From an uncultured candidate division Zixibacteria bacterium (GTDB taxonomy: Bacteria; Zixibacteria; MSB-5A5; RBG-16-43-9), in the NCBI GenBank assembly GCA_963713865.1, contig OY970208.1:544001-608000 (forward strand): a stretch of DNA of 64,000 bases, read 5' to 3'. The notes beneath the pieces are model-generated. The model worked only from the letters and a program-made list of their open reading frames with translations, was not told the DNA's origin and searched no databases. The position numbers and the translations under genes were made by a program. Shown one piece after another: positions 16 to 51,917 of this stretch (position 1 is the stretch's first letter; every line of letters begins with the position of its first letter).

Positions 16-783
16 TTATTTTCTTCTTCTTATGTAATTAAACGCTCCTAAACCTAAAAGACCGCTCCCCAGAAGGATTATTGTTCCTGGTTCAGGCTGG
101 GCTATTAGATATCTTTCATCCACTCCAGTTATATTAGAAGCATCTGCCATAAAATTATCATAATGAACTTCGACTGCCGGAGCATTTCCTGCGCTACCAT
201 CATTACCTGCTTCCATAAAAACCCTTACAGACGAATTATACCCGTAAGGAAGTACAATACTATTTACTAACTGCCAATCACCAGCGGAATAATAATAAGC
301 GGAAAGTGTAGAACCAAATCTACCCAATCTGAATTTACCATTAAAATCTGATGTGACTGAAACATATCCAGTTTGCCAGCTTCCATCCACCATAAAATCA
401 ACCTGTTCGTAATACTGAAGGTTATTCACATCAAATTTTCGAGACATTAGCATTGCGAAAGTATTATCTTTTGCCCATATCCCTAAAGTAGCGCTACTAA
501 AATAAGTATCAAAATCAATTAAATCAAAATCAACATTTGTAATGAAATCACCTGCAAGATTGAAATTGGAAGATACCTGACCTCTACCCCCTCTTCTACC
601 TTCTGTTGTTTTTAAGTTAAGATAACCATTTTCCACAGATGCATAACCATAGTCATGTGAATAATCATTCCACAGAGCTGGATCAAATGAATCAAAATTA
701 TCATTTAACAGGATCTGGGAATAGGCTGAAGTAGCTAATAAAAGGATGATTGCTAAGCTTAAAACTGTTATTTTCTTTTTCAT
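16..783 (-). CDS. PEP-CTERM sorting domain-containing secreted protein (beta-rich, possibly lectin/ConA-like body)
   Basis: N-terminal signal peptide; C-terminus QPEPGTIILLGSGLLGLGAFNYIRRRK = PEP motif + TM helix + basic tail. Confidence 0.9.
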   Translation of the reverse strand: MKKKITVLSLAIILLLATSAYSQILLNDNFDSFDPALWNDYSHDYGYASVENGYLNLKTTEGRRGGRGQVSSNFNLAGDFITNVDFDLIDFDTYFSSATLGIWAKDNTFAMLMSRKFDVNNLQYYEQVDFMVDGSWQTGYVSVTSDFNGKFRLGRFGSTLSAYYYSAGDWQLVNSIVLPYGYNSSVRVFMEAGNDGSAGNAPAVEVHYDNFMADASNITGVDERYLIAQPEPGTIILLGSGLLGLGAFNYIRRRK

Positions 784-822: not shown

Positions 823-838
823 AGCAATTAATATGCCA
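823..838 (-). promoter_or_regulatory. sigma54 (-24/-12) promoter of the PEP-CTERM gene
   Basis: Minus strand TGGCATATTAATTGCT matches TGGCAC-N5-TTGCW with correct GG-N10-GC spacing. Confidence 0.8.
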
Positions 839-957: not shown

Positions 958-1203
958 GACTCAATTCAACAAAATCGGGATTTTAGGCTTAACTCATTGA
1001 ACATTAGAAGATTAAAGATTCACTTTTTTGAGTTCAGACAAATGACATTTTTAATATTAATCTGACACAGGAAAAAATTACTTCTTTGATTGAAATATAT
1101 TCCATTTTTTGATCATTGTTTATTCACATTTCTAAAAACCTATAAAACCTTAATTCTTTAACATTCAAAGAGATACATCCAAAACTTGTATAGTTATTTA
1201 GTG

Positions 1204-1402
1204 TAGGCATACCTTTTGCTAAAAATTTGAACAGAATTTAGTTAAGATTTTCTTAATGTTGCCGAATTGACTCAAAAGGATAAGCTATGTCCCAGGAAGG
1301 GGCGATAAAAAGCAAAAGAGCTTGTCCACTAAAAATGGACTCAAGCAACTTTAGCAGGAGGCTAAAGACAAACTGCCGGAGAAGAAAAGGGGGGTTTTTC
1401 AA
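1204..1402 (+). repeat. Duplicated promoter+leader element, copy 1 (conserved GGA motifs, hairpins, uORF 1287-1430)
   Basis: Clear similarity to 18266-18465; core aligns gap-free at offset 17060. Confidence 0.9.
1205..1220 (+). promoter_or_regulatory. sigma54 promoter of EPS operon 1
   Basis: AGGCATACCTTTTGCT with GG-N10-GC spacing; homologous site at 18267. Confidence 0.75.
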
Positions 1403-1456
1403 GTCATTTAGAATCCAGGATATTACTTAAACTGTTTTTAATTAAAAAACAATTCT

Positions 1457-2203
1457 ATGATCGATTTACATACACATCTTCTTCCGGGAATAGATGATGG
1501 AGCAAAATCTATGGAGGAAGCAATCCAGATGATAAAAGAAGGAAGGGAAATAGGGATAACTGCAATCTGCACCACACCCCATCTTTCAACCAATTTTAAG
1601 AAAACTAAAACGGAAAAAGTTGTAGAGATTTTCTTAAAACTTCAGGAAAGAATGGCTCAAGAAAAAATTGATATCCAGCTCTATTTGGGAAGCGAGATAG
1701 ATTTGAGGGAGGATCTTAGCTCAATGAAAGACCTCCCTTGCTTTTTCCTGAACCATACTCAGAAATATTTATTCCTGGAACTCCCCTTAGGAGAATTCCC
1801 TTCCTTTACAGAGAGGATACTTTTCTCCTTACTGATAGAAGGTCTATCTCCAATTCTGGCACATCCGGAAAGAAGTTTAAATCAAGAAATTGACTTTGAA
1901 AGATTAGGGAAGCTAAAAGATTCAGGAATTCTAATCCAGCTTAACGCTGGTTCCCTTTTAGGAAGTTTCGGTAAAAAAGTTCAAAGGTCAGCTTTGAAGT
2001 TATTAGAAAAAGATCTGGTGGATCTGTTAGCCAGTGATGCACATGACTCAAATAACCGACCTATAACCATTCTATCAGAAGCTTTTAAAAGGATAAAAAA
2101 TGATTTTGGGGAGGAAAAAGCAAGAGAACTTTTTGAGGAGAATCCCCAAAAAATCCTTCAAGCGGAAGATATTGAAAGAAAAATGAGAATAAAATACTTC
2201 TAA
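1457..2203 (+). CDS. cpsB: PHP-family tyrosine-protein phosphatase (CpsB/CapC/YwqE type)
   Basis: MIDLHTHLLPGIDDG, TPH, AHPER and ASDAH motifs. Confidence 0.92.
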   Translation: MIDLHTHLLPGIDDGAKSMEEAIQMIKEGREIGITAICTTPHLSTNFKKTKTEKVVEIFLKLQERMAQEKIDIQLYLGSEIDLREDLSSMKDLPCFFLNHTQKYLFLELPLGEFPSFTERILFSLLIEGLSPILAHPERSLNQEIDFERLGKLKDSGILIQLNAGSLLGSFGKKVQRSALKLLEKDLVDLLASDAHDSNNRPITILSEAFKRIKNDFGEEKARELFEENPQKILQAEDIERKMRIKYF

Positions 2204-2216
2204 CCAAGGTGGAAAA

Positions 2217-2714
2217 ATGAAAAGAGTAAAAAAGTTAATCAGCCTGGGTTTAGTATTCTACCTATTCTTTTTTCAGGTATCAAGTTTAGTCTGGGCTCAG
2301 GTGGAAGAAAAAGAGGGAACTCTGAGGAATGCCGGCTCAAACTATTTTCTTGCTCCCGGAACTAATAACCAGCTTTTAATTAAAGTGAATGTCTGGGGTG
2401 AGGTATTTAAGCCAGGGATTGTGGAGGTGCCGGATAATACTGATCTGCTCTCTCTGCTTTCCATAGCAGGAGGACCGACTGAAAATGCCCGGCTCAGCAA
2501 AGTTAAAATCCTGAGACATTTTTCCCAGAACAAAACCATCACCGTGAATGTCAAAGATTTTGTTCGAGATGGCAAAGCTGAAGAGATACCTTTAATCAAA
2601 CCGGGGGACACAGTTATAGTTCCTCGAAACAGCTTCCATACGGTTACAAAATATATAACCTTTGTCTATAATTTAGCAGTGATAGCCAGCGTGATTAAAC
2701 TTTTTACTCAATAA
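2217..2714 (+). CDS. SLBB-domain polysaccharide export protein (Wza-like)
   Basis: Signal peptide; VNVWGEVFKPG...LSIAGGPT...PGDTVIVP SLBB signature; adjacent to wzc. Confidence 0.8.
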   Translation: MKRVKKLISLGLVFYLFFFQVSSLVWAQVEEKEGTLRNAGSNYFLAPGTNNQLLIKVNVWGEVFKPGIVEVPDNTDLLSLLSIAGGPTENARLSKVKILRHFSQNKTITVNVKDFVRDGKAEEIPLIKPGDTVIVPRNSFHTVTKYITFVYNLAVIASVIKLFTQ

Positions 2715-2728
2715 TAAGGAGTAGTAAA

Positions 2729-4997
2729 TTGGAAGAGCAGAATAGAATAGCCCAGGTTCAAAAAGAGATCTCCTTTCAGGACTACCTGATAATCCTGAAG
2801 AGGAGAGGGTGGATCATAATCAGTTCTTTTTTAATAATCCTTCTCTCCGCTGGAATCTTTTCTTTTATCGCTCAGCCGATCTACGAGTCTTTTACTACCT
2901 TGATGATCGAGGAAGATGGAGGGATGAAGAAAGATATTTTTGAGATCTCCTCTTACTTAAAGCAGGAGACGATGATCAAAAACCAGGTGGAGATACTTAA
3001 AAGTCGAACTCTGACTGAATCGGTTCTACAGGTCCTTTTATCCTCCCCTTATAAAAGAGTCTGGGAAGAAAAAGCTCTGGGGAAAAGAGCCGATAGGGTC
3101 AAAACTAACGATATGGTCTTGATCCTGCAGAACAATATCAAGGTGGTACCTTTAAAGGAGACTGATATAATTCAGGTTAAAGCAACCGCTCCGGATCCTG
3201 ATCTGGCTGCATTTTTAGTCAACACCATTGCAGAAGAATACTATAAACAAAGCCTCCAGGTCAGCCGGGGAGAGATCACCGAGGTACGCCAGTTCTTAGA
3301 GGAACAGCTTTTGAGCATTCAAAAAGAGTTGCAGCAAGCTGAAGAGGCTCTAAGAACATATAAAGAGCAAGAAAAGGTTGCCGCCCTACCTGAAGAAACC
3401 GAAGAGCTGGTAAAACAGTTAGCCGGTTTTGAGTCCATGTATAATGAAGCAAAAACCGATCTGGAAGCCAATCAGAAAAGACTTACCTATATGCAAAACC
3501 AGCTTTCGGAGAGAAAAAGTCATTTAGTGGAAGATGTATCTCAGGTCTCCAGTCCTTTGATAACTCAATTACGGCAGGAGATGGCAAATTTAGAAGGGAT
3601 GAGAGCGGGATTTTTAGCCCAGGGTTTCCCGGAAGACCATCCCAAGATGGTAGAAACAGTCAATCGCATAGAGGATATAAAGCAGAAACTCATAAAGGAA
3701 ACCACCCAGTTAATTTCTAAAGAGCTTTCTTCTTCGGACCCTTTAGCCTATTCCCGGGAGTTAGTGGAGAAGATTTTAACCCTGGATATAGAGATTCAAT
3801 CTTTAACTGCTAAATCAGAGGCATTAAAGAGAATTGTGGATACCTACTCAGATAATCTCAACACCCTGCCGGAAAAAAGCCTTAAATTAGTTCGCCTGGA
3901 GAGAAATGCCAAGGTGGGAGAAAATATCTTCTTAATGTTAAAGGAAAAATATGAGGAATCACGCATAAGTGAGGCTGGACAGATCGGAAGTGTGAGGATC
4001 ATAGATAAAGCCTTACCTCCGGAGAGCCCCATAAAACCTAAAAAGAAAATAAACATTCTTTTAGGTGCGCTCCTGGGTCTGGGATTAGGATTGGGAATGG
4101 CATTTTTTGTGGAGAGGCTGGATAATTCCCTAAAGAGTATAGAGGATGTGGAAAGAGCTGGCCTTTCGATCTTAGGCTCGATACCTCTGATAAAAAGCAG
4201 TAAAGATAAAAAATCAAAGAAAAAAGAAGAGAAGTCTGAAGACTATCAAATAAAAAGAATTGCCTCAAATTTAGTAACTCATTTCGAGCCAAAGTCACCT
4301 ATCTCTGAGGCATATCGTACCTTCAGGACTAATCTGCAATTTGCCAGAACTTGATTCACCCTTGAGGACTATTCTGGTAACCAGTTCAGGGCCAGGCGAG
4401 GGTAAATCTACCACTGTAGCTAATTTGGCAATTACCATGGCTCAGATGGGAACCAAAACTCTTTTAATCGATTCAGACTTAAGGCGTCCGGTCTTACACT
4501 CTATCTTTAGTCTCCAGAGAAATCCGGGGTTGACCAACTATCTGGCAGGAAACGTTCCCTTAGTAGAAATTATCCAAGCAACTCCTATAGAAAACTTAAG
4601 TGTCTTAACCTGTGGAGTCCTGCCTCCTAACCCTTCTGAGCTTTTAGGCTCAAAGAAAATGAAGACCCTTTTAGAAGAGCTGAAAGGAAAATATGAGATG
4701 ATCCTGTTTGATTCTCCACCGGTAATAGCAGTAACTGATGCCGCAGTGTTATCGACCTTATTGGATGGAGTGGTTTTAATAGCATCATCCGGACATACTT
4801 CCAGAGAGGCATTAGTAAGAGCGACTACTTTGTTGCAGAATGTCAATAGCAGGTTAATAGGCGGAGTCCTAAATAAGATCAAAGTGGAAAACATTTACGG
4901 TTCATATCACTATTACTACTATTACCACTACTATGGAGGAACTAAACAGAAGAGGAAAAAAAGAACGGCAGAAGAGGTAAAGGTTAATGTCTCATAG
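2729..4997 (+). CDS. wzc: Polysaccharide chain-length regulator / BY tyrosine kinase Wzc, with +1 frameshift at ~4348
   Basis: Two TM segments with coiled-coil periplasm, EAYRTFRTNLQF, Walker A GPGEGKST, DSDLRRP, C-terminal Tyr cluster YHYYYYYHYY; deleting one A at 4348-4349 joins ORFs 2729-4354 and 4341-4997. Confidence 0.9.
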
Positions 4998-6429
4998 CAA
5001 AGCCTTTGTCATTTTTAAAAACTCAGGTACCTTGGGGATTTCCACATTTGTAGGAAAGATTTTTTACTTATTATTATTCATTATAATCGGAAGGTATTTA
5101 GGACCTTCGGATTTAGGGAAGTTCAGTTTTGCTATGTCCTTCGCTGCCATATTCTTTTTGGTAAATGATTTAGGGATAAGAATCCTGGCAGTAAGAGATG
5201 TTTCCCAAGATAAAAACTTGACTGGAAAATATCTAGGGAATTTAGTATTACTAAAGCTCTTCTTGGCTGCCTTTGCCTTCTTAGGGGTATTTGCTATGAT
5301 TAACCTTATGGGATATCCCAAGGAAACGGTTATCATTGTTACCCTTATAGGCTTAGCTTCTCTCTTGATTCACTTTTCTACGAGCTTTAGATGGATTTTT
5401 CAGGCTTATCAGAGGCTGGAGTATGAGTCACTAATTGGTGTTATTGAGAACTTGGGTAACTTAATTCTAGGATGTTTGGCAATGATACTCAACTTACGAA
5501 TTGTTGGCATCGGCTATGGCATGATTATTGTGGGAGCTTTTATTGTTATTATCTCCTGGTTTGTAGTGAACAGAAAATTCCACAGAGTAAAAATCGAAAT
5601 AGATTTACCATTCTGGAAAGATTTGTTGAGTAAGTCCATCCCTTTTGCTTTGATGCTGGTCTTCGCCACTTTATATCTTAATGCAGACACAGTTCTGCTC
5701 TCCTTATTCAAAGGTGACCATGCAGTGGGGCTTTACAATGCGGCTAATCGGTTAGCCCTAGCTTTAAGAATGTTTCCTGCAGTATTTATCTCCGCTTTTT
5801 TCCCGATAGCCTCTGAGCTCTCTAAAGTCTCTAAAGTTGAGCTTAGTAGCTTTTTAGAAAAATCCTTAGCTTTGATGGTTTCCTTAGCTTTACCCTTGTG
5901 CGTTGGCACAACTTTTCTTGCAGAAAAAATTATTACTTTCTTTTATGGTCAAAAATTTAGTGGTTCGGCATTAGTTCTACAGATAACTATTTGGGGCACC
6001 TTCTGCATGTTTTTAAGTGTCGTTTTGGGATACACTTTGATATCTCTGGGAAAACAAAAAATATATACTCTGATAACTGGTTTGGGTTTAGGAGTTAACC
6101 TAGTGATTAATTTCAGCTTGATCCCTAGATTTGCTCAGTCTGGAAGTGCCATAGCCATTCTATGTACTGAGCTTTTTATCCTAGTGGCAGTATTTTACTC
6201 AATTGTAAAATTACTTGATTTCAAGATGAAAGGATTTCTGCCCTCGGTCATGAAAATAAGTGCCGCCTGTTTGGTTATGCTGGGAGTGATATACTTAACT
6301 AAAGATTTTCATCTCCTGTTGTCTGTTGGATTAGGAACAATAAGCTATTTCACCGCTCTTTTCGCATTCAAAGGGATATATGGATATAATCTATATAGAA
6401 TTAAAGAACTAATTTTAGTGCGACTTTAA
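4987..6429 (+). CDS. wzx: Wzx-type flippase
   Basis: Many TM helices; RYLGPSDLGKFSFA and DTVLLSLFKGDHAVGLYNAA motifs of polysaccharide flippases. Confidence 0.88.
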   Translation: MSHSKAFVIFKNSGTLGISTFVGKIFYLLLFIIIGRYLGPSDLGKFSFAMSFAAIFFLVNDLGIRILAVRDVSQDKNLTGKYLGNLVLLKLFLAAFAFLGVFAMINLMGYPKETVIIVTLIGLASLLIHFSTSFRWIFQAYQRLEYESLIGVIENLGNLILGCLAMILNLRIVGIGYGMIIVGAFIVIISWFVVNRKFHRVKIEIDLPFWKDLLSKSIPFALMLVFATLYLNADTVLLSLFKGDHAVGLYNAANRLALALRMFPAVFISAFFPIASELSKVSKVELSSFLEKSLALMVSLALPLCVGTTFLAEKIITFFYGQKFSGSALVLQITIWGTFCMFLSVVLGYTLISLGKQKIYTLITGLGLGVNLVINFSLIPRFAQSGSAIAILCTELFILVAVFYSIVKLLDFKMKGFLPSVMKISAACLVMLGVIYLTKDFHLLLSVGLGTISYFTALFAFKGIYGYNLYRIKELILVRL

Positions 6430-6443
6430 AAGGAATTTATAGG

Positions 6444-7817
6444 ATGATAACTGACTTTCTGTTAATAACAGTGATTTCTTTGTTTGTCTTTCTTTGGGTA
6501 GGTAAGAGCTTTAAAAGAGTAGTTCTCTTTCTGGCATTTTTTATGCCTTTTGAGGAGTTCATCCTGAAATTTATTCCAGTCTCAGATGAGCTATATTCTC
6601 TTTTGAGATATGGAAGTGAGGTTTTATTACTTATAACCCTTGTAGCTTTGATTATTAATAAAATAATCCAGAAAAAGCCATTTGTTAAAACTGTAGCGGA
6701 TATTCCGGTTTTGACATTTGCAGGAATTGCCTTCCTATCCGGAATCTTGAATCAAACCCCTCTATTAGAAATTGTGCTATTTTTAAGAATAGTACTACGA
6801 TACTATGCTTTGTATTTCCTTTTGGTAAATATTGAGCTGGATGAAAAATTTACCAAAAAACTTATATATGGACTCGTGACCATAGCTTCTCTTCAATTCT
6901 TTATAGGATTAGCCCAGGTTTTAATTGGTGGGGCTGTGAATGACCTACTCATGCCCAAACCTTCAACTCTTATAGTTGGGAGTTACTCTAAAGAGTGGGT
7001 ACTTCTTCAGGGTTTCAGGGAAAAGGGATATTTATTCTTTGGCACTTTTGGTGATACGGTAAATCTTGGTCTTTTTATCTTTGTAATTTTTGTGATGATG
7101 TTGGGGGTTTATTTTATCTGGGAAAAACCTATAAAGAGGATGTGGTTATTCTTCCTTTTATCCTTTTTTACCCTTCTTTACACCTATTCTGTCGGTTTAA
7201 TATTTTCCTTATTCGTAAGTTTATTATTTATCACTATAATAAAAAGAAAGTGGACTCTAATGGTAAGCACTTCCCTAATTGTTCTATTATTCTTTCTAAT
7301 ATTGACTTTCTATCCAGCCGAATTTGCAGAGGTAGCTACATCACATTATATGGTTTCACCCTTAAAAAATCTCTCCGCAACCTTTTCAACTACGTTCCTT
7401 GAAAGTATTCAAAAGAATAGAATTTTCACACTTATAGAAGTTCCAAAAGTGATCTTATTTCAATCACCTCTGTTTGGTTTTGGACCGGGCTGGCGCCTAA
7501 TTAAAGATAGAATCTCAAGTTATTGGTTAGGAGATGTATATTGGGCTCAAATGGTTGCCCAGGTGGGTCTAATGGGACTTTTTGCCTTTTTATGGATAAT
7601 TTTAAGATTTTATAAAACCAGTTTCAAGGTTTATAAAAATTCAAATGATTTGCTAAAGAAAGGAATTGCCCTTGGATTTTTAGGAGTAATAGCTGGATTC
7701 TTTTTTTATAACTTCATTTGTGGAACTTTCGAGACTCGACCCTCAGCTCTTTGTTTCTGGTTGTTTGCCGGGCTAATTGGAAACTGGTCAAAATCTATTC
7801 CGGGAAATGAAATATGA
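6444..7817 (+). CDS. Wzy polymerase / O-antigen ligase family membrane protein
   Basis: Multi-TM; GTFGDTVNLG, PLFGFGPG and QVGLMGL motifs; position in the cluster. Confidence 0.75.
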   Translation: MITDFLLITVISLFVFLWVGKSFKRVVLFLAFFMPFEEFILKFIPVSDELYSLLRYGSEVLLLITLVALIINKIIQKKPFVKTVADIPVLTFAGIAFLSGILNQTPLLEIVLFLRIVLRYYALYFLLVNIELDEKFTKKLIYGLVTIASLQFFIGLAQVLIGGAVNDLLMPKPSTLIVGSYSKEWVLLQGFREKGYLFFGTFGDTVNLGLFIFVIFVMMLGVYFIWEKPIKRMWLFFLLSFFTLLYTYSVGLIFSLFVSLLFITIIKRKWTLMVSTSLIVLLFFLILTFYPAEFAEVATSHYMVSPLKNLSATFSTTFLESIQKNRIFTLIEVPKVILFQSPLFGFGPGWRLIKDRISSYWLGDVYWAQMVAQVGLMGLFAFLWIILRFYKTSFKVYKNSNDLLKKGIALGFLGVIAGFFFYNFICGTFETRPSALCFWLFAGLIGNWSKSIPGNEI

Positions 7818-8890
7818 AAAAGATATTAATGGTAGTTGGTTGCAAAGTTCAGAGTTTAAAAGAGGATGACAAAAGTAAGCATCCGGCTGACATTTTGTTG
7901 CCAAACCAGAGATACTGGTTTTTCAAATACTGGTCCGGAGACAATTTGAAGATAGAGGTTATAGGTTATAAAAGAATCCCTTTTTTGAGCAAAATCGAGA
8001 AAAAGATTTTACATTTTCATCTTTTTCAATCCTTAAGGATTTTGCCAAAGATGAAAAAATATGACCTTGTGATTTTCTTTCATTCGCAGATAGGGATAAT
8101 CCCGGCTTTATTTAAGAGCATCTTTAAAATAAAGACTCCTCTGGTGTTGATAGATGTGGAGGGTTTAGGCAGAAAAAACAAGGGGTATATGTTGCCCTTT
8201 ATTAGAAAAGCCCTACGGGGAATAGACCAGCTTTTCTATTTAGCTTCAATTCAAAAAGAAGACTATCAGAGATATTTGCCTGAAATCATCAACAAAAGCG
8301 ATTTTCTCCCTCTGGGAATAGACCTGACCAGATTTTCATCTAACAGAGCAAAAGAAGATGATTATATCGTCTCCATAGGATATCAAGGTCCTGATTTCAG
8401 AGACTGGAAAACCTTGATAAAAGCTTATGGACAGTTGAAGACCAAGACAAAGCTCTTAATTGTAGGAAGAGAGAAGTTTAAACCAGAGGAAGTTGATTAT
8501 GAGAAAATCCCTTTAGGGGTAGAATTTGTTGGGAAAACAGACCTTTTGACTTTGAATGAAATCACTTCAAAAGCCAAATTCGTGGTATTGCCACTTCCTG
8601 AGAGGAGACATGCTTTTGGGCAGATGACACTTTTAGGATGTATGGCAATGGGGAAAGCGGTGATTGTAAGCCGGGTGCCAGGGATTATTGATTATGTCAA
8701 AGCTAATGAAAATGTTTTGTTAGTGGAACCAAGCAACATTTTAGATTTGAAGAGCAAAATGGAATACTTGTTAGCTGAACCTGAAAAGAAGAAGGTCCTT
8801 GAGACAAAAGCCAGAGAAACGATTGAAAAAGAGTTTAACGAGATTAAAATGGCGAAAGGGATTTATGAAGCAGTTTCTAAAATTATTTGA
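7814..8890 (+). CDS. Glycosyltransferase family 4
   Basis: GT-B C-terminal domain GQMTLLGCMAMGKAVIVS. Confidence 0.85.
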   Translation: MKKILMVVGCKVQSLKEDDKSKHPADILLPNQRYWFFKYWSGDNLKIEVIGYKRIPFLSKIEKKILHFHLFQSLRILPKMKKYDLVIFFHSQIGIIPALFKSIFKIKTPLVLIDVEGLGRKNKGYMLPFIRKALRGIDQLFYLASIQKEDYQRYLPEIINKSDFLPLGIDLTRFSSNRAKEDDYIVSIGYQGPDFRDWKTLIKAYGQLKTKTKLLIVGREKFKPEEVDYEKIPLGVEFVGKTDLLTLNEITSKAKFVVLPLPERRHAFGQMTLLGCMAMGKAVIVSRVPGIIDYVKANENVLLVEPSNILDLKSKMEYLLAEPEKKKVLETKARETIEKEFNEIKMAKGIYEAVSKII

Positions 8891-8902
8891 AGATATTAGA
8901 GA

Positions 8903-9673
8903 ATGCAAAAAAAACAAGGGGTAGGAATGGATCAAGAGTTCTTAAAACAATTAGATGAAATTCAATTATCCAGATGTCTTCCTTTTTTGAGAAAATACTA
9001 TCAAAAATTGAGAGGACAATTCAAAGATTTCCAGGAGTTGGTGAGTTATAATCTCCATCCCGAACTCAAAGTTTTAGATGCTGGCTGTGGAGATGGTCAA
9101 TGGGGTGATATTTCTCAACTAATCCACTCTCATCCATTTGTGGTGGGCATAGATGAAAGTGAAGAATCTTTGAAGAAGAATACCACTATAAAGCGATTGT
9201 TTAAAGGGGATCTACATCAGCTTCCTTTTGGTCCTTCTGAGTTTGATCTGGTGATCTGTCGTTCAGTCTTTGAGCATTTAGAAAATCCTCAAAAGGTTAT
9301 TGCGGAATTCAAGAGAGTACTAAGTGACCACGGTCGGGTGATCATCTCTACTCAGAACCGATATAATCCCATAATGTTTTTAAGTTCGATATTGCCGGCC
9401 TGGTTAAGAAAAATTTTAAAACTGTTTATTATTAGTCAGGGTTGTGATGAGGGGACTTATAAGACTTTTTACCGCTGCAATACCAAATCAAAATTTCACC
9501 AACTTTTCCACGGAAACGGTTTTAAAGAAATTAAGTTTGTAAGACTTGGACAATGTCCGGACTACTGGAAGAATTCAGCGTTTCTTAATTTCTTTTTAAT
9601 TTTTGAAAAGCTGACTGATTGGAAAAGGCTCAATTTTTTGAAAGCACATATAGTAGCGGTGTACGAAAAATAA
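8903..9673 (+). CDS. Class I SAM-dependent methyltransferase
   Basis: VLDAGCGDG motif I; FDLVICRSVFEHL. Confidence 0.88.
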   Translation: MQKKQGVGMDQEFLKQLDEIQLSRCLPFLRKYYQKLRGQFKDFQELVSYNLHPELKVLDAGCGDGQWGDISQLIHSHPFVVGIDESEESLKKNTTIKRLFKGDLHQLPFGPSEFDLVICRSVFEHLENPQKVIAEFKRVLSDHGRVIISTQNRYNPIMFLSSILPAWLRKILKLFIISQGCDEGTYKTFYRCNTKSKFHQLFHGNGFKEIKFVRLGQCPDYWKNSAFLNFFLIFEKLTDWKRLNFLKAHIVAVYEK

Positions 9674-9688
9674 AAGGAATTAGAAGGA

Positions 9689-10911
9689 ATGCAAACAGGT
9701 ACAAGTTGTGAAAAAGGGTGTTTTAAAAATGTTTTGCTGCTCGGGTTCGGATTTTATCTCCATAGAAATAGTGGGGATAAGAATTTCTGGCTGGGACTTT
9801 CCAGGGAGTTGTCTTTTATGCTGGATAAAATAGTTATAGTTTCAGCTAATTCCTCGCCAACTAAATTTGAGCAGGAAGGGAATATTTACCAGTATAATTT
9901 TCAGTCCTCATTTCACCGAAAGAAAGCTGGTGGAAAGGATGAAAGATTTCAATTCTTGAAGAATTCTCCTCCTTGGAGGGCTGTACAAAGATCTGCTACT
10001 TTGCTAAAGTTAATTCCTTTCTTGAAAAAGTTAGTTAAACATCACAATATCCAGGTAATTCATCTGATGGACAATTTTGGATTTTTGACCGGATTGGTTA
10101 AACTGTTTTTTCCTAAACTGAAAGTCTATGCCACTGCTATCACATATAATATCCATAGTTTCCCTGCTAAGCCTTATTCTTTTTATCAAAAGATAGTTTT
10201 TGGAAATCTGGATAAGGTGGTGGTCAGTTCAAACGCTTATAAGCAGAAATTAATCGAGCATAACTTTTCAAGAGAAAAGCTTAAAGTCATCCGGTGGGGA
10301 ATTCCTGTTTCAAATGGAGAAGAGAGGATGCCAGAGAATGGAAAAGCTTATCGTTCTAAAAAAGTGATCTTATGGACAGGCTTTACCCAACAGGTAAAGG
10401 AAAAAAGTTTTTATCTCTCCTTATCCCTGGCAAAAAATATACTAAAGAAAAACCCATTTGTTGATTTCATTTTCGCCTTTAAGCCGGAATGTTTTGACAA
10501 AAAGTATGAATATTTCAGGGGTGAGCATATCCAGGTTTTAACTACAAAACCTGAAGATTTCAAAAATCTTTTACCGAAGGTTGACCTTCTACTTGCCCCG
10601 ATTGATAACTATAGCTCAACTGTAGCTCCTCCTCTGACCTGGATAGAGTGCATGAGCTTGGGAATACCAGTTATAAGCACACCGGTACCGGAGTAGATGA
10701 GATTCTTATCCACAACCAGACCGGTTTTGTGGCTAAATCTAAACAGGAGTTAGAGGAGCTAATAGAAAGGGTCTTAGAAGAAAGAGATTTGCTGACAAAA
10801 GTATCAACCAGAGCAAAAGAATGGGTCAGAGAAAATTATAATTTGAAAGATATCGCTGGGGATTACCTGAAATTATGGAGGGAAGATGGTAGAGCTATCT
10901 TATCCAGCTAA
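9689..10911 (+). CDS. Glycosyltransferase family 4, with -1 frameshift at ~10691
   Basis: ECMSLGIPVISTPVP continues as GVDEILIHNQTGF in the next frame; adding one G at 10690-10691 restores the typical GT4 C-terminus. Confidence 0.8.
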
Positions 10912-11533
10912 AACTGCCTATCAGTCTGAAGAATCGGCTGAAACCTACGACAGGATTAGATTTGATAGTTTTAAAGGGAAACTGGCAGATAGAAGGGAGA
11001 AAAAGATAATAGGAAAGTTTCTCAAAGACCTTCCTAAAGGTAGCCTGGTTTTGGATTTGGCTTGTGGAACCGGAAGAATCGCTGAGTTTTTATTATCTCA
11101 AGGTCATAGAGTCTGGGGAGTAGATATCTCAAAAGAAATGCTGAAAGTTGCAGAAGAAAAACTTAGCTCCTTTGGAAAATCAGTTAATTTCTACCAGGCA
11201 GAAGCAGAGAATCTGCCTTTTGAAAAAAAGTTATTTGATAGTGCTACCTGTATCAAGCTTTTGGGACACATCCCACCTGAAACCAGGATTAAAATCCTTC
11301 AGGAGTTAAAAAGGGTTACTAAAGGTTCTCTTGTTGTGGCTTATTACCTCTCTGGACCGATTGCGAATGCCAAAAGGAAAATCAGGAAATTCATTACAGG
11401 TAATAAAGCTCCCTGGTATCCAATTAGCAGAAAGTGTTTAAAAGAAGAGATAACTTTAGCTAATCTGAGAATTCTTAAAGAAAAACCGGTATTAGCATTT
11501 GTTTCTGAAACCTTGATTCTTTTGTTAGATTGA
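10886..11533 (+). CDS. Class I SAM-dependent methyltransferase
   Basis: VLDLACGTG, GVDISKEML, AENLPF. Confidence 0.88.
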   Translation: MVELSYPAKTAYQSEESAETYDRIRFDSFKGKLADRREKKIIGKFLKDLPKGSLVLDLACGTGRIAEFLLSQGHRVWGVDISKEMLKVAEEKLSSFGKSVNFYQAEAENLPFEKKLFDSATCIKLLGHIPPETRIKILQELKRVTKGSLVVAYYLSGPIANAKRKIRKFITGNKAPWYPISRKCLKEEITLANLRILKEKPVLAFVSETLILLLD

Positions 11534-11579
11534 AGTTAAGAGGTTATACAGTAGAGTAGTGTCAAGAAAGAAGTAAATT

Positions 11580-12839
11580 ATGGTTCATTATTTCGATAAC
11601 AAAAAAGAAATCGTGTTATGCCTTTTGATGATTTTCTTTCTTGCTTTTGCTTTAAGATTTATTTGGGTTTCAAAGCTGGGGTCTAAATTTTATTGGTCAG
11701 ATGAATATGAATATAACAAAATTGCCACTAACCTATTGGAAGGGAAAGGATATTCCTTGGATGGGGTCAAACCAACCGCCTATAGACCACCTGGACAATC
11801 AATTTTTCTGGCGCTTTTATATTTTACCTTCGGTCATAACCTTTTCTTAGTAAGGATCTTCCAAAGCATAATGGGGTCTTTAGCCTGCTTCTTAGTATAT
11901 TTAATCTGTTCCAAACTTAGTTTTAGCTCATCCGCTTCACTCCTATCTAGTTTATTAGCTGCTCTTTATCCATATTATATCTATGCGGCCGGGAGTTTAT
12001 ATCCTATAATTCTTTTGACCCTCCTACTCCTTTTGGCCTCACTTTTCTTAATTGATGCTTATGGTCGATATAAAAATCTCAGCTTAATAAGTGCAGGTAT
12101 TTGTTTAGGCTTAGGAACGTTAACAACTCCCCACTTATTTATATTATTTCTCTATGTTCCATTTTGGTTGATATTGAACCCAAGAATATCCACATTGAAG
12201 AAAAAGTTGGCTTATTTCTCAATAATTTCGATAACCTTTATTTTAACAGTATCACCCTGGCTTGGACGGAATTACTATGTCTTTCACAAAATCACTTTTT
12301 CAACTAATGGCGGTTATAATTTTTGGTTAGGCAACAACCAAGAAGCTACTCCAACCAGTGGAAATAAAGTCTCAGTACCAGCAGAACTAAATAAAAAATT
12401 AGGTTTAGCTATCAGTGAAGTAGAAAAAGAAGAAATTTTCGTAAAAGAAGCTTTAGGTTTTATTAAAGAGCATCCGATAAGATTTGCTTATCTCAGTCTG
12501 GGCAAGGCTTTAAATTTCTTTAGCTTTTATCCGGAGACCGCTACTCAAAATGAACATACTTCTTATAAATTCAAGATTATTTCAATTCTATCCTACAGTC
12601 CAATTCTGATTTTTGGAATATTGGGAATGTTTGTCCTTCGGAGACGTTGGAAAGAACTATCGATTTTCTTATGGTATCTTATCTCTTTTGTGTTGCTTTG
12701 CAGTTTTTCTATTTCTAAGATCAGATTTCGTTTACCCTTAGATGTTTATTTAATAATTTTTAGTAGCTACTTTATTGTTCTCTTGATGGAAAAGACTTTT
12801 GTTAGATTTCATATAGCAACGATAAAAAGCGAGTATTGA
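11580..12839 (+). CDS. GT-C fold (ArnT/PMT-like, GT39/83) membrane glycosyltransferase
   Basis: DEYEY after TM1, TAYRPPG, PWLGRNY, NFWLGNN, RFRLP; many TMs. Confidence 0.75.
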   Translation: MVHYFDNKKEIVLCLLMIFFLAFALRFIWVSKLGSKFYWSDEYEYNKIATNLLEGKGYSLDGVKPTAYRPPGQSIFLALLYFTFGHNLFLVRIFQSIMGSLACFLVYLICSKLSFSSSASLLSSLLAALYPYYIYAAGSLYPIILLTLLLLLASLFLIDAYGRYKNLSLISAGICLGLGTLTTPHLFILFLYVPFWLILNPRISTLKKKLAYFSIISITFILTVSPWLGRNYYVFHKITFSTNGGYNFWLGNNQEATPTSGNKVSVPAELNKKLGLAISEVEKEEIFVKEALGFIKEHPIRFAYLSLGKALNFFSFYPETATQNEHTSYKFKIISILSYSPILIFGILGMFVLRRRWKELSIFLWYLISFVLLCSFSISKIRFRLPLDVYLIIFSSYFIVLLMEKTFVRFHIATIKSEY

Positions 12840-12889
12840 AATATGTTTCTGAGACATCGATTCTTTTATTGAATTGAGGTAAACTATTT

Positions 12890-12934
12890 ATGAAGATTTT
12901 ATTTGTAAACAGATACTATCGAGGCTATAAATGA
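12890..12934 (+). other. 14-codon mini-ORF MKILFVNRYYRGYK, ATGA-coupled to the downstream methyltransferase
   Basis: GAGGT upstream; TGA overlaps ATG 12931; homologue at 14686-14730. Confidence 0.5.
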
Positions 12935-14670
12935 ATACGGTAATAACTGAGCAAAAGCCAAAAACTGAGTTAGAATATACCAATTGTGATTTCTGCGGTG
13001 AGGACAAAACCAGCCTCTTTCTGGAAGCAATGTCTGAGGATACCCCGGAGAAATTTAAGATTGTAAGATGCAATAATTGTGGATTACTCTATCTAAATCC
13101 TAGGCCGGTCAAGGAGATTATTGGAAGATATTACCCTGTAGATAGCTATTATGCTTATCAAGATTTCTCAAACAAAAAATTCAATTATCGGGAATGGTTA
13201 AAGAAAATCTCCTTAGATGGGTATTACAATTCAAAAAATAGTTTTAAAAAACTTCTCTCTCTGCTTTTAGTCAGAAATTTTATGATTGTGGTTCCGAACG
13301 AAAAAAGGGGAAGACTCTTAGACATAGGTTGTGGGAGTGGGGAATTTTTGTACCAGATGAGAAATTTTGGCTGGGATGTCTCTGGAGTAGAGATAAATCA
13401 AGCATCTGCTAATTTGGGAAACAAACAGGGGCTTAATATCTTCTGCGGAGAATTAGGGGGTGCTGATTTCTCAGATAACTTTTTCGATGTAGTGGTCTTA
13501 AACCAGACCTTGGAACATGTTTACTCCCCCGGTTCATATCTGAAAGAAATACATAGAATTCTCAAACCAGAAGGGACTTTAATAATCGCCGTGCCTAATA
13601 TCGGGTGTATGGAGAGCAAAATGTTTAAAGAAAACTGGCACCTTTTAGATGTTCCGACACACCTTTATTTTTTTAATACCACTTCTCTAAGGCGGTATTT
13701 GGAAAAGTATGGATTTGCAGTTGAGGAAGTTCTTTCCAAAAGATTTAGTCTCCCTCTTAACGAAATAAGAGCTGATTTAAAAGCAGTTATTCAAAATGAA
13801 TGTAGAGATAAAAGTTTTTTAAATAAAACACTGATGAGCATTCGAGTAATTTCTCGATTGATCATTGCAAAAAGTTTAAGATTTCTCTTCATTCGAGATA
13901 AGGTTGAGGAATTAGGTGTATATATCTCTTTCTATGTCCGAAAACCGAGAATAAGAAATGTAATTCCTTGCACGAGGGAACTCTCAACTCAAAAAGACAG
14001 GGGGCTAAATAGCATGAATAACTTTATGCTGAAGACTAATAAAAGAAGAATACTCAGGTACAGCAAACGGTATAAGATAGTTCAAAAGTATTGTTTCGGC
14101 AAAACAGTTTTAGACCTGGGTTGTGTTGATCACTCCGCTGAGGCGGAAGAGAACTTCAATGACTGGCTTCATAAAGGAATAAAGGATGTGGCTAAAGAAG
14201 TGGTAGGGCTGGACAATGCCGAGAAAGAAGTAAAGCTTCTAAATCAACGAGGATATGACATCTTAGCGGGAGACGTGGAGAACTTCAATTTAGGTAGACG
14301 TTTTGAGGTAGTTGTTTGTGGAGAATTGATTGAACATGTCAACAACCCGGGGCTAGTTCTACAAAATATCAAGAAGCACCTACTAAAAGAAGGTACTCTT
14401 ATTGTTACAACCCCGAATTCTGAATCGATGTTGTGGGTTCTGTATAACCTGGTTTATGGAAGAGTGCCCTGTAATCCAACCCATGTTTTTTGGTATAATT
14501 ACCAAACCCTTACAGAACTTTGTAGAAGATACGATTTCGAGGTTGTAACCACCTATTACGAAGTAGGTAATCCTAATAACAGGGTGCTGTACAACATTGA
14601 GCGATGTATGCGTTCCATCAGGAAGAATTGGGCTCACGAACTGATTGTGATATTTAAGAACAAACATTGA
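12931..14670 (+). CDS. Tandem double class I SAM methyltransferase (Cys-motif MTase fused to a second MTase starting near 14014)
   Basis: CDFC...CNNC N-terminus, LLDIGCGSG; second domain VLDLGC...GELIEH; possible internal ATG at 14014. Confidence 0.8.
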   Translation: MNTVITEQKPKTELEYTNCDFCGEDKTSLFLEAMSEDTPEKFKIVRCNNCGLLYLNPRPVKEIIGRYYPVDSYYAYQDFSNKKFNYREWLKKISLDGYYNSKNSFKKLLSLLLVRNFMIVVPNEKRGRLLDIGCGSGEFLYQMRNFGWDVSGVEINQASANLGNKQGLNIFCGELGGADFSDNFFDVVVLNQTLEHVYSPGSYLKEIHRILKPEGTLIIAVPNIGCMESKMFKENWHLLDVPTHLYFFNTTSLRRYLEKYGFAVEEVLSKRFSLPLNEIRADLKAVIQNECRDKSFLNKTLMSIRVISRLIIAKSLRFLFIRDKVEELGVYISFYVRKPRIRNVIPCTRELSTQKDRGLNSMNNFMLKTNKRRILRYSKRYKIVQKYCFGKTVLDLGCVDHSAEAEENFNDWLHKGIKDVAKEVVGLDNAEKEVKLLNQRGYDILAGDVENFNLGRRFEVVVCGELIEHVNNPGLVLQNIKKHLLKEGTLIVTTPNSESMLWVLYNLVYGRVPCNPTHVFWYNYQTLTELCRRYDFEVVTTYYEVGNPNNRVLYNIERCMRSIRKNWAHELIVIFKNKH

Positions 14671-14685
14671 GAATACACACAGAGT

Positions 14686-14730
14686 ATGAAGATTTTATTT
14701 ATAAACAAATACTATCGAGGTAATAAATGA
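14686..14730 (+). other. 14-codon mini-ORF MKILFINKYYRGNK, ATGA-coupled to the downstream methyltransferase
   Basis: Homologue of 12890-12934; TGA overlaps ATG 14727. Confidence 0.45.
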
Positions 14731-15773
14731 ACACAGCAATAACTGAACAAAAACCAAAAACTGAGTTAGAATATACTAATTGTGATTTCTGTGGAGAGAA
14801 TAGAACTAATATCTTTCTGGAAGCAGAGTCTGAAGTCAATAAAGAGAAATTTACAATAGTCAGATGTGATAACTGTGGATTAATCTATCTTAATCCTAGG
14901 CCAACTAAGGATATCATTGGAAGATATTATCCTGAAGATAGCTATTATTCTTATCAGGATTTCACAGAAAAAAGATTGAATTACCGGGAATGGCTGAAGA
15001 AGATCTCTTTGGAGGGATATTATAATTCAAAAAATATATTTAAAAAACTCATCGCCAAACTTTTAGTTAGAAATTTCCTGGTCGTGATACCCAAAGAAAG
15101 AAAAGGGAGGCTTTTAGACATAGGTTGTGGGAGTGGGGAATTTTTGTACCAGATGAGAAATTTTGGTTGGGATGTCTCAGGAGTGGAGATAAATCGAGCA
15201 TCTTCTAATTTGGGAAACAAACAGGGGCTTAATATTTTCTGTGGCGAATTGGGGGAAGCTGATTTTCCAGATAACTTTTTTAATGTAGTTGTCCTAAGCC
15301 AAACCTTGGAACATGTTTATTCTCCGGGTAATTATCTGAGAGAAATATATAGAATTCTGAAACCTGAAGGAACTTTAATTATTGGAGTGCCAAACATTGG
15401 GTGTATGGAGAGCAAAATATTTAAAGAAAGCTGGCATGCCTTAGAGGTTCCCAAGCACCTTTACTTTTTTACATGTGACACTTTAAGACGTTATCTGGAG
15501 AAATACGGATTTGAAGTGGAGAAAATTCTTTCTAAAAAATTTAGCTTGCCCCTTAAAGGAATAAAGGCTGATCTAAAAGCATTTATTCAAAATAAAGGTA
15601 AAAATAAAAGTTCTTTGAACAAGATCTGGATGAGATTTCTGGTTGTTTTTCATTTAATATTTTTAAAAAGCTTAAGATGTCTCTTCATTCGAGATAAGCT
15701 TGAGGAATTAGGTGTACATATCTCTTTTTATGCTAATAAACCAGTGAACAAAAAGAAAGAAAAAGTCCATTAG
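14727..15773 (+). CDS. Class I SAM methyltransferase with N-terminal Cys motifs; close paralogue of the N-terminal half of 12931
   Basis: Near-identical blocks such as EQKPKTELEYTNCDFCGE and GRLLDIGCGSGEFLYQMRNFGWDVSGVEIN. Confidence 0.88.
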   Translation: MNTAITEQKPKTELEYTNCDFCGENRTNIFLEAESEVNKEKFTIVRCDNCGLIYLNPRPTKDIIGRYYPEDSYYSYQDFTEKRLNYREWLKKISLEGYYNSKNIFKKLIAKLLVRNFLVVIPKERKGRLLDIGCGSGEFLYQMRNFGWDVSGVEINRASSNLGNKQGLNIFCGELGEADFPDNFFNVVVLSQTLEHVYSPGNYLREIYRILKPEGTLIIGVPNIGCMESKIFKESWHALEVPKHLYFFTCDTLRRYLEKYGFEVEKILSKKFSLPLKGIKADLKAFIQNKGKNKSSLNKIWMRFLVVFHLIFLKSLRCLFIRDKLEELGVHISFYANKPVNKKKEKVH

Positions 15774-15780
15774 GGAATTT

Positions 15781-18100: not shown

Positions 18101-18265
18101 GTTAAATGTTATTTTCTAAATAAATCCCCTAACGGAAAAAATTACTTTTTTTAAGAAATATATTCCTGTTGTACTCAAAATCTGAACTTTATTTCAAAAA
18201 ATATCTCCAAAGCTTATTCTTTGATATTCAATGAGTTACATATTAAACTCAACGGGAAACTCCTA

Positions 18266-18465
18266 TAGGCACGCCTTTTGCTAAAATATTGAACAGAATT
18301 TGTTAAGATTTTCAGGATGATGTCGATTAAAGCAAAAGGATAAGCTATGTCCAGGGAAGGGGCGAAAAAAAGTAAAAAGGCTCGTCCAGAAAGAATGGAC
18401 TCAGTCGAGCTTAGCTGGAAGCTAAAGCTAAACTGCCGGAGAAAAAAATGGGGGGTTACTTTCAA
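18266..18465 (+). repeat. Duplicated promoter+leader element, copy 2 (uORF 18347-18535)
   Basis: Homologous to 1204-1402. Confidence 0.9.
18267..18282 (+). promoter_or_regulatory. sigma54 promoter of EPS operon 2
   Basis: AGGCACGCCTTTTGCT, near-perfect -24/-12 consensus. Confidence 0.82.
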
Positions 18466-18539
18466 CTGTTTCCAAATAATCTTTCTCTGTAATTTATCAG
18501 TAACAGTGAGTATTATTAAACTTTTTACTTCATAAAAAT

Positions 18540-19499
18540 ATGCGTTATTTTATTACCGGCGGAGCCGGTTTCATTGGAAGCCACCTGGTGGATAGGTTAA
18601 TTCTTGAAGGAAAGGTTACGGTTTTTGATAACCTCTCCTCAGGTAGAATTGAGTTCATCACCCACCATTTTGGTAATCCAAATTTTGAATTTATACAAAA
18701 AGACCTGCTAGACTTGGATGATTTAAAAGAAGCCATAAAAGACCATGACGTAGTTTTCCATTTAGCTGCAAACCCTGATGCTCGTTTAGGGATTGATGAT
18801 ACCAGCCTGGATTTGAAACAGGAGACCTTAGCCACCTATAACGTTTTAGAAGCGATGAGAGAAGCTGGTATAAAAAAGATTGTCTTCTCCTCCTCTGGCA
18901 CTATCTATGGAGAGACTCCAGTTATCCCTCTTCCAGAAAACTATGGTCCGGTTCTTCCCATCTCCCTCTATGGTGCAGGAAAGGTAGCCAGTGAGGCTTT
19001 GCTCTCTGCTTTCTGTCATACGTTTGACATGCAAAGCTGGATTTACAGATTTGCCAATATCGTTGGTCCACGAGGGACCCATGGGGTAATTTTCGATTTC
19101 CTGCATAAACTGAAAAGAAACCCAAATGAATTAGAGATACTGGGAGATGGAAATCAGAAGAAACCTTACCTCTCAGTAGAAGATTGTGTGGAGGGGATAC
19201 TGTTCGGTTTTGAAAATTCAAACGAGAGGGTGAATTTCTTCAATCTGGGCTGTGAATCTACGACGGATGTGAGGACAATTGCCAAGATGGTTGTAAAAGA
19301 GATGGGTTTGGAAAGCGTTAAATTCGAATACACCGGTGGTGATAGAGGCTGGCCCGGTGATGTCCCGCAGGTGAGGTTTAATACAGAAAAGATGGAAAAG
19401 TTAGGATGGAAACCCAGATACACATCCGACCAGGCAGTTGAAAGAGCTGTAAAATTCCTGGTTGAAGAGATCATAGGAGAGAAAGTATGCAGTTGGTAA
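18540..19499 (+). CDS. NAD-dependent nucleotide-sugar epimerase/dehydratase (GalE-like extended SDR)
   Basis: GGAGFIG, YGAGK (YxxxK). Confidence 0.9.
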   Translation: MRYFITGGAGFIGSHLVDRLILEGKVTVFDNLSSGRIEFITHHFGNPNFEFIQKDLLDLDDLKEAIKDHDVVFHLAANPDARLGIDDTSLDLKQETLATYNVLEAMREAGIKKIVFSSSGTIYGETPVIPLPENYGPVLPISLYGAGKVASEALLSAFCHTFDMQSWIYRFANIVGPRGTHGVIFDFLHKLKRNPNELEILGDGNQKKPYLSVEDCVEGILFGFENSNERVNFFNLGCESTTDVRTIAKMVVKEMGLESVKFEYTGGDRGWPGDVPQVRFNTEKMEKLGWKPRYTSDQAVERAVKFLVEEIIGEKVCSW

Positions 19500-39389: not shown

Positions 39390-39545
39390 AAGTAGGGACA
39401 GAACACTGTTCTGTCCCTACAATATGTAATCTCGCCTTGTCCTCAAGTCCGAGAAATGGATCCACAGTAGAGGGATATTTGACCTCCCGTAGGCGGGGCT
39501 TCAAACCCCGCTAAATAAGTTTTCCAGAAAACTCTAAAAAATTCC

Positions 39546-44524: not shown

Positions 44525-44540
44525 AAAGAGGAGTAAAAGG

Positions 44541-45383: not shown

Positions 45384-45395
45384 CTGGAGGAAAGT

Positions 45396-46052: not shown

Positions 46053-46085
46053 CCCCAAAATTTTTAACTTGACTTTTAGGAGTAA

Positions 46086-47267: not shown

Positions 47268-47272
47268 AGAAT

Positions 47273-47923: not shown

Positions 47924-47924
47924 T

Positions 47925-48782: not shown

Positions 48783-48792
48783 GGAGACAAAG

Positions 48793-50339: not shown

Positions 50340-50340
50340 A

Positions 50341-50407
50341 GAAGTGCAATCCGCCAAAAGCGGATTGTTGCTAATTTTAAATATGCAAGAGCAAGCTCTT
50401 GCACTCC
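50341..50407. repeat. REPIN-like pair between A3 and B3
   Basis: GAAGTGCAATCCGCCAAAAGCGGATTG ... GCAAGAGCAAGCTCTTGCACTCC. Confidence 0.65.
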
Positions 50408-50449
50408 GACAAGACGTGAGAAGTAAGAAGTGAAAAGATAAAAAAACCT

Positions 50450-51064: not shown

Positions 51065-51072
51065 TTGTATCT

Positions 51073-51912: not shown

Positions 51913-51917
51913 TAAAT

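Follow-up and report, generated by a model that had tools for sequence, protein, structure and literature searches.

The systems closest to the one described here are leader transcripts recognized by CsrA or RsmA. In Escherichia coli, iraD is translationally coupled to a short open reading frame (ORF) on which CsrA acts as a repressor (Park et al. 2017, as cited in the review PMC7652899), and the leader of the E. coli pgaABCD operon carries six CsrA sites, with translational repression and CsrA-promoted Rho termination (PMC4052769; PMC7652899). In the psl leader of Pseudomonas aeruginosa, RsmA stabilises a hairpin between the Shine-Dalgarno (SD) sequence and an anti-SD (PMC2984543; PMC7652899), and in the hag leader of Bacillus subtilis CsrA binds two GGA stem-loops and is antagonised by FliW (PMC13443453; PMC7652899). 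With regard to promoters, Haft et al. (2006; PMC1569441) reported sigma-54 motifs and an upstream activator motif in the large intergenic regions of a PEP-CTERM/exopolysaccharide (EPS) locus, the promoter motif in Proteobacteria standing ahead of individual PEP-CTERM genes. The subject of the present analysis is a duplicated leader that heads two EPS operons in a stretch of 64,000 nucleotides (the window; GCA_963713865.1, contig OY970208.1, positions 544,001 to 608,000) from an uncultured candidate division Zixibacteria bacterium. It is read here, tentatively and as plausible though short of probable, as a leader behind a sigma-54 promoter in which translation of a short ORF governs expression of the operon and is itself regulated, at its start, through hairpins that carry GGA, CsrA being the probable regulator. 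Coordinates are those of the window.

A duplicated leader behind sigma-54 promoters

Two segments, 1204-1402 (copy A) and 18266-18465 (copy B), were found by pairwise alignment and by BLAST against the organism's own genome to share 82% identity (E 1.1e-47), and they are the sole two copies in this single-contig genome of 2.72 Mb. They contain a gapless repeat of 132 nt (1266-1397 and 18326-18457; repeat family D5) at an offset of 17060, and in the pairwise alignment the homology reaches further 5', to approximately 1070 and 18134. An earlier reading of the same DNA from its letters alone (the sequence-only reading) had described these as homologous segments 17 kb apart, each with a -24/-12 promoter; both parts of that description were borne out. 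It had also called the segments non-genic, and this needs correcting, as each holds a conserved short ORF.

Using BLAST and a covariance model, the module was recovered from all nine genomes of one family, in 13 instances, and from none of the other 25 genomes of the order. Copy A lies ahead of cpsB in every family genome. Copy B lies ahead of the epimerase gene in four genomes, which represent three of the four genera, and the duplication is therefore older than the genera. A pattern scan of metagenomes returned 21 loci, of which 18 were real and three were chance matches (L059, L060 and L068), while a scan of 185,579 species genomes returned nine stretches whose match offsets agree with the family's loci. 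Hence the homologues in related genomes anticipated by the sequence-only reading do exist. Its view that the element is new to Rfam also stood: the window gave no match to Rfam 15 at the gathering threshold, and at E<=10 only irrelevant matches were obtained in either leader. In the order's other families, the regions upstream of cpsB carry a different leader and hence no distant homologues (L081-L091); these sister families have a conserved region there with a directly repeated GAACGTCCCCA and a CTGCCGATAT box, the spacing of which resembles what we take to be an ECF-type (extracytoplasmic function) GAAC...CGTC promoter.

The Rfam result bears on a second proposal of the sequence-only reading, namely that the leader is a loading site for processive antitermination of the JUMPstart/ops-RfaH, LoaP-leader or EAR type, serving the 17-kb operon. 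Long polysaccharide operons are a known setting for such systems, a loose similarity to JUMPstart had been noted for the stretch GGGGCGAUA, and the interval from operon 1 to promoter B yielded no terminator on the plus strand. None of the JUMPstart, LoaP or EAR models matched either leader, however, at the gathering threshold or at E<=10; the genome has one NusG-family gene (a single PF02357 match), and therefore no RfaH or LoaP paralogue; and the ops-like stretch varies among genera (GGGGCGGAA, GGGACGAA). The proposal was consequently rejected as extremely improbable.

Sigma-54 sites were recognized by GG and GC dinucleotides 10 nt apart within a TGGCAC-N5-TTGCW-like motif situated upstream of, and facing, a gene. 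The -24/-12 motif GGCAYRNNNNTTGCW has three matches in the window compared to 0.18 expected, a number reached in none of 100 shuffles, and all three (823 on the minus strand; 1206 and 18268 on the plus strand) are intergenic and correctly oriented to a gene. The promoter of copy A occupies 1204..1220 (plus strand), with GG at 1206-1207 and GC at 1218-1219, and that of copy B (GGCACGCCTTTTGCT) occupies 18266..18282 (plus strand); judged by spacing, transcription would start near 1231 and 18293, respectively. The motif is kept in 13 of the 13 family instances. The genome encodes rpoN and has approximately 18 full-length matches to sigma-54 activator-like proteins, one of which exceeds the cut-off for PrsR (TIGR02915). 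The third promoter (823..837, minus strand) diverges from copy A and precedes a gene (783..16) in whose protein a PEP-CTERM motif was detected; the leader of this gene is short, approximately 40 nt, with the SD AAGGAGAG.

Further upstream, alignment of the two copies revealed a conserved block (1070..1103 and 18134..18166, plus strand), centred in copy A approximately 120 nt upstream of the -24 element, that is a candidate enhancer, or upstream activating sequence (UAS). It was matched ahead of the promoter in all four genera (BLAST query 3-80, E 1.9e-5 to 5e-3); a genome-wide search with its two 12-mers gave 1421 matches, the motif being too A/T-rich to inform. A second conserved A/T-rich block lies between the UAS and the promoter (1153..1178, plus strand; A/B alignment) and, by eye, resembles an IHF site.

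The short leader ORF and its hairpins

An SD-like AAGGA (1276..1280, plus strand), which includes the first of five GGA triplets, stands 6 nt ahead of the start codon of leader ORF A (1287..1430, plus strand), a frame of 47 codons beginning MSQEGAIKSKRACPLK that stops 26 nt before cpsB. Leader ORF B (18347..18535, plus strand) has 62 codons and stops 4 nt before the epimerase ATG. The frame from the conserved ATG was open, over 35-62 codons, in 25 of the 25 variants evaluated (one row cut at its 5' end was excluded), and it stops 4-64 nt upstream of the first gene; the other two frames of the leader contain 2-5 stops. One lineage has a 21-nt in-frame deletion within the ORF, and the tails of the B copies differ by 9 nt between genera. 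At other sigma-54 promoters of this genome an SD and ATG follow after approximately 35-60 nt, and the leader ORF occupies that same position. The first genes of both operons lack an SD: none that is purine-rich was seen in the 30 nt before 1457, the start of the gene for a CpsB/CapC-type phosphatase (1457..2203, plus strand; Pfam CpsB_CapC, E 1.3e-54), nor before 18540, the start of that for an NAD-dependent epimerase/dehydratase (18540..19499, plus strand; Pfam Epimerase, E 9.4e-45), whereas most other genes of the operons carry one.

The final 19 codons of ORF B are those with which the SLBB gene in operon 1 ends, still in the original frame (ITFVYNLAVIASVIKLFTQ and IIFLCNLSVTVSIIKLFTS, each up to the stop), and a DNA repeat of 78% identity (family D17) joins 2655-2717 with 18476-18538. 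Since the tail of the ORF is the end of the SLBB gene in frame, copy B arose by duplication of the operon head and a subsequent internal deletion.

Between genera, codon positions 1, 2 and 3 of cpsB differ by 0.22, 0.12 and 0.45, respectively, and those of codons 1-19 of the leader ORF by 0.16, 0.26 and 0.105. Because third positions differ by 10.5%, compared to 45% in cpsB, the constraint lies on the nucleotides and not on the peptide. The distal half of the ORF is read in different frames by close relatives (L065 versus G001_A; G004 versus G008), an invariant run of six G residues (G6) falls in different frames in different homologues, no homologue of the ORF A peptide was found among 5.8 billion proteins, and neither leader ORF matched Pfam or NCBIfam. 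At most, it is the act of translating the leader ORF that matters and not its product. That the ORF yields a small basic protein with a function in trans in the EPS machinery is accordingly highly improbable: the N-terminal 19 residues are similar across genera (MSQEGA.K..RACPERMDS) and synonymous third-position changes do occur at Ala6, Ala12, Asp18 and Ser19, but purifying selection is absent overall, the frames of the C-terminal half disagree and homologues are lacking. Two other roles were considered for the distal sequence. The idea that G6 provides the SD for a hidden ORF was discarded, no start codon lying within approximately 12 nt of it in any genus (by eye), and for frameshifting or slippage at the A-run, G6 and U-run the frames disagree among homologues.

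The transcript of the leader is predicted to fold into three hairpins (HP1 to HP3), and these recur in the folds of all genera but the most divergent one. HP1 (UGUCCC-AGGAA-GGGGCG; 1288..1304, plus strand), which was present in all folds, holds the UG of the start codon in its stem and the second GGA in its loop; 94.7% of its alignment cells are paired, and two of its pairs changed on both sides. HP2 (GCUUG-UCCA-loop-UGGA-CU-CAAGC; 1320..1346, plus strand) has the third GGA and a second conserved AUG (1335-1337) in its 3' strand. Its upper stem is paired in 93.6% of cells, and its lower stem, the register of which varies, has both-side changes in the B copies and in genus g2 (by eye). HP3 (CUUUAGC-AGGAG-GCUAAAG; 1349..1367, plus strand) presents the fourth GGA in its loop; its inner three pairs are found in 22-24 of 26 rows and its outer four pairs in genus g1 alone. 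There follows a conserved ACUGCC-GGAGAAGAAAA-GGGGGG-UUUUU (1370..1399, plus strand; G6 at 1389-1394), possibly a fourth hairpin with the fifth GGA, as GGAGA, in its loop; the strands of this predicted hairpin are nearly invariant and thus beyond the reach of covariation. By alignment, repeats and folds, the copy B counterpart of HP1 to HP3 and of the GGAGA, A-run and G6 block extends over 18348..18459 (plus strand; G6 at 18450-18455). On the minus strand, HP2 (1324-1340 and 18384-18400) and the complement of the A-run obtained a terminator-like score in both copies, most likely an incidental by-product of the A-run.

The alignment sample comprised 26 distinct sequences from the four genera. 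Over these, 81.5% of cells pair, compared to 27-48% when the partners are slid, and six pairs changed on both sides, compared to a shuffle mean of 2.0; none of 500 shuffles reached six. Between copies A and B, mismatches affect 3/36 stem positions, 6/17 loop positions and 13/68 linker positions, and both hairpins quoted in the sequence-only reading are present, so that its remark on stems kept while loops change was sound. Covariation, which it had named as a check, was seen in part: the hairpins are kept and six pairs change on both sides, but compensatory changes are few. Likewise, its suggestion of a novel cis-regulatory RNA holds insofar as the leader is conserved, keeps its hairpins and belongs to no Rfam family, but not in the sense of a purely non-coding element, given the ORF with its SD and ATG. 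In the minimum-energy folds of genera g1 and g3, a helix of GGAUAAGCU with AGCUUGUCC sequesters the SD; this helix is not conserved in g2 and is without covariation, and in these models an SD/anti-SD arrangement is a possibility.

The first 28 nt or so after the predicted start (1231-1258 and 18293-18320; TTGAACAnAAT...GTTAAGATTTT) are 90-100% conserved over the four genera, and no predicted structure accounts for this. Such a block (TTGAACAnAAT..GTTAAG) is what would be expected if conservation acted on the DNA, through repressor operators or promoter-proximal elements downstream of the start site. As an explanation of the whole leader this is very unlikely, however, as conservation runs approximately 170 nt into the transcript, the logic of hairpins and GGA is strand-asymmetric and compensatory pair changes are present.

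GGA triplets, CsrA and the surrounding genome

The five GGA triplets of copy A start at 1278, 1295, 1337, 1357 and 1378, and each recurs at +17060 in copy B, exactly as the sequence-only reading had it. Their number is not what sets them apart; the leader had been called GGA-rich, and the counts are those given by composition (5 compared to 4.8, P=0.59, and 6 compared to 5.2, P=0.43; 2000 dinucleotide shuffles). The GGA columns are nevertheless the best conserved of the leader, at 0.98 compared to 0.805 for the remaining columns (P=0.0004 that five triplets chosen at random would be as conserved), the first triplet being exact in 22 of the 26 distinct rows and within 2 nt in 25. They are placed at the SD (1278), 17 nt on in the loop of HP1 (1295), in the loop of HP3 (1357) and at 1378. 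CsrA targets, as the relevant passages of PMC7652899 define them, have at least two sites at least 10 nt apart, one of them overlapping the SD or start codon, and are ideally presented in hairpin loops; the leader shows this arrangement. The triplets form two pairs, 17 and 21 nt apart, a spacing compatible with bridging by a CsrA dimer.

A single csrA was found in the genome (PF02599, 86.7 bits), flanked by fliW and flgN. Its product has the VHREEV motif, and the RNA-binding residues are thus intact, in agreement with the expectation that a csrA would be present. Genes for CsrA, FliW and a FlgN-like protein lie together at locus L030 (G000:C1:1965700-1967600). FliW is encoded in seven of the nine family genomes. 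Among the family genomes, G005 (90% complete) alone yielded neither csrA nor fliW; its two leaders are the most eroded, and overall it is also the most divergent of these genomes. The leader is a candidate member of a CsrA regulon.

Conservation of the triplets and hairpins would also be expected of a purely non-coding cis-regulatory RNA in which the open frame is incidental and the hairpins and GGA serve as a platform for CsrA or another RNA-binding protein, steering elongation, stability or downstream translation. This explanation, considered rather unlikely, accords with the conserved third positions, with codon position 2 being the most variable and with a ratio of nonsynonymous to synonymous change (dN/dS) that is not below 1 in genus g3; it accords equally with the conservation of G6 and ACUGCCGGAG despite different reading frames, with the lack of any protein database or family match to the peptide and with the GGA columns being the best conserved. 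It leaves unexplained an SD and ATG at the usual distance from a sigma-54 start, a frame that several indels have closed in none of the 25 variants, in-frame length changes of 21 nt and 9 nt, and the absence of an SD from both first genes. Conversely, the leader ORF by itself may be the device, loading ribosomes for the SD-less first gene and preventing Rho polarity without any GGA-binding factor, with hairpins that merely tune mRNA stability or initiation. The conserved SD and ATG, the open frame and the SD-less first genes are all in keeping with this, as are GGA counts no higher than composition predicts, a csrA that does not co-vary with the element and the presence of rho in the genome. 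It is judged unlikely, as it gives no account of why conservation is highest at the five GGA triplets or why approximately 115 nt of the ORF are near-invariant at third positions over four genera.

Several observations also weigh against a leader ORF gated at GGA hairpins by CsrA. The triplets are not enriched, as noted above; in G001_A the loop of HP1 reads AAGAA instead of AGGAA, by a synonymous change; and the fifth GGA is lost in L052 and L071 and absent from G005_2. csrA occurs in 30 of the 34 genomes of the order and the leader in one family, hence without co-variation, and the only known partner logic of FliW-type CsrA involves flagellin. With regard to the ORF, G005_2 has CTA in place of the leader ATG, the frame still being open from the second conserved ATG, and the distance from stop to first gene is as variable as stated above. 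The peptide shows no purifying selection (within-clade dN/dS of 2.05, 0.51 and 0.42), and variable columns at codon positions 1, 2 and 3 of the ORF total 13, 17 and 11. The frame could therefore be open incidentally, the conserved sequence having few in-frame T-purine-purine triplets; for one lineage the chance of this is put, roughly, at P about 0.08. With regard to structure, covariation amounts to six cells, mostly from the two most divergent genera, the folding z-scores are modest (-1.93, -1.87, -0.35, -1.33 and -3.00) and RNAalifold applied to a MAFFT alignment gave a weak consensus of -5.83 kcal/mol.

No match to Flagellin_N, Flagellin_C or a flagellar-rod family was obtained in the genome, and flagellin was detected in one of the 34 genomes of the order; from these sequences, the lineage is apparently aflagellate yet retains a flagellin-homeostasis module, CsrA being kept in the order and, in this family, FliW and FlgN too. 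The order's sole flagellin-like match, L097/L098 (G010:C26:10054-10454), is split and contains an in-frame TGA, as a pseudogene or a recoded gene might. One could speculate that the CsrA/FliW partner switch has been rewired from flagellin homeostasis to the matrix, with CsrA gating the EPS leader ORFs through the GGA hairpins and FliW sensing some partner other than flagellin, for instance a PEP-CTERM protein that is exported or the state of the export apparatus, but this extension is distinctly doubtful.

Operon 1 extends from 1457 to 18100 and encodes, in addition to the CpsB-type phosphatase, an SLBB export protein, a Wzz/GNVR chain-length protein, a tyrosine-kinase ATPase, a flippase, a Wzy-like protein, glycosyl- and methyltransferases and a radical-SAM enzyme. 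Operon 2, from 18540, encodes the epimerase, a nucleotidyltransferase, a GHMP kinase and SIS and HAD proteins. The best NCBIfam matches of the operon proteins are to XrtA/PEP-CTERM-associated families, below the equivalog cut-offs. Within operon 1, a tandem duplication at 12889-15732 (period 1796 nt, 79-82% identity) involves two methyltransferase genes (12931-14670 and 14727-15773). Elsewhere in the window, 44213-52594 contains three diverged paralogous copies of a gene set, probably for membrane proteins, spaced by approximately 3.1-3.4 kb (families D3-D7). A palindromic element of 30 nt (AATCCCACCTTG...CAAGGTGGGA) is present in four copies, at 29613, 42261, 42364 and 62380, with related repeats at 39472 and 42386 (families D10 and D11); these look like repetitive extragenic palindromic (REP) elements or terminators.

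Proposed mechanism and relation to described systems

Given the arrangement of the two loci, a leader ORF under RNA-level control is proposed to function as follows. Each EPS operon would be transcribed from its enhancer-dependent sigma-54 promoter, and the transcript would open with the conserved leader of approximately 170 nt, in which the SD (AAGGA) and AUG lie approximately 55 nt from the predicted 5' end. The amino acids of the leader ORF would be unimportant; the frame is held open as far as the SD-less first gene, to which its translation would deliver ribosomes by termination-reinitiation, or coupling, and this translation would also protect the long leader against Rho. Control of initiation on this ORF would in turn be exerted at the level of RNA: the start codon forms part of the stem of a hairpin whose loop presents a GGA, spaced 17 nt from that of the SD, and beyond it lie two more GGA sites 21 nt apart, the first in the loop of HP3. 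The most likely ligand is the genome's single CsrA, which would repress translation of the leader ORF.

If this is correct, the matrix of an uncultured sediment lineage would be under a two-layer switch, in which sigma-54 and an enhancer protein decide on transcription, and use of the message then depends on a translated leader that carries GGA hairpins. A module copied before the second operon would keep the synthesis of sugar precursors in step with polymer export. The leader would also add a family-specific RNA motif absent from Rfam, an example of leader-ORF coupling outside the enterobacteria and a candidate target for FliW-type CsrA in bacteria without a flagellum.

At the level of the promoter, the locus is most like the PEP-CTERM/PrsK-PrsR-PrsT regulon (PMC1569441), a PEP-CTERM gene with a sigma-54 promoter adjoining copy A and a PrsR-type activator being present above the cut-off. 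The motif 1 given there ends in TTTACA and lies approximately 63 nt upstream, and the upstream block found here differs from it; the sections of PMC1569441 that deal with these promoters report no leader element or ORF, whereas here the promoters head EPS operons in a non-proteobacterial lineage. Literature searches, with supplementary files outside their scope, yielded no paper linking PEP-CTERM loci with CsrA or describing a leader element at such promoters.

Of the CsrA and RsmA systems, the hag leader is similar in having a FliW-associated CsrA, one GGA in a hairpin loop and one at the SD; its target, however, is flagellin, which in this order was found in one genome of 34. The psl leader is likewise that of an EPS operon, and the g1 and g3 minimum-energy folds are reminiscent of it in pairing GGAUAAGCU with AGCUUGUCC, but the SD helix is neither conserved in g2 nor accompanied by covariation, and the psl promoter is RpoS-dependent. 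The pgaA leader resembles the present one in being long, in heading a polysaccharide operon and in having several GGA sites, of which two fall at the SD and start codon, and Rho is available here also; it differs in having no leader ORF and an NhaR-activated promoter, and there is no sequence similarity between the two. In the case of iraD, a short ORF again precedes the regulated gene, with GGA at the SD and start codon of that ORF, and downstream expression is proposed in both instances to depend on translation of the leader ORF. The leader described here, known from sequence alone, involves a FliW-associated CsrA and has a longer ORF, of 35-62 codons, laid over three or four conserved hairpins; in contrast to iraD, its module is associated with a sigma-54 promoter and heads two multi-gene EPS operons.

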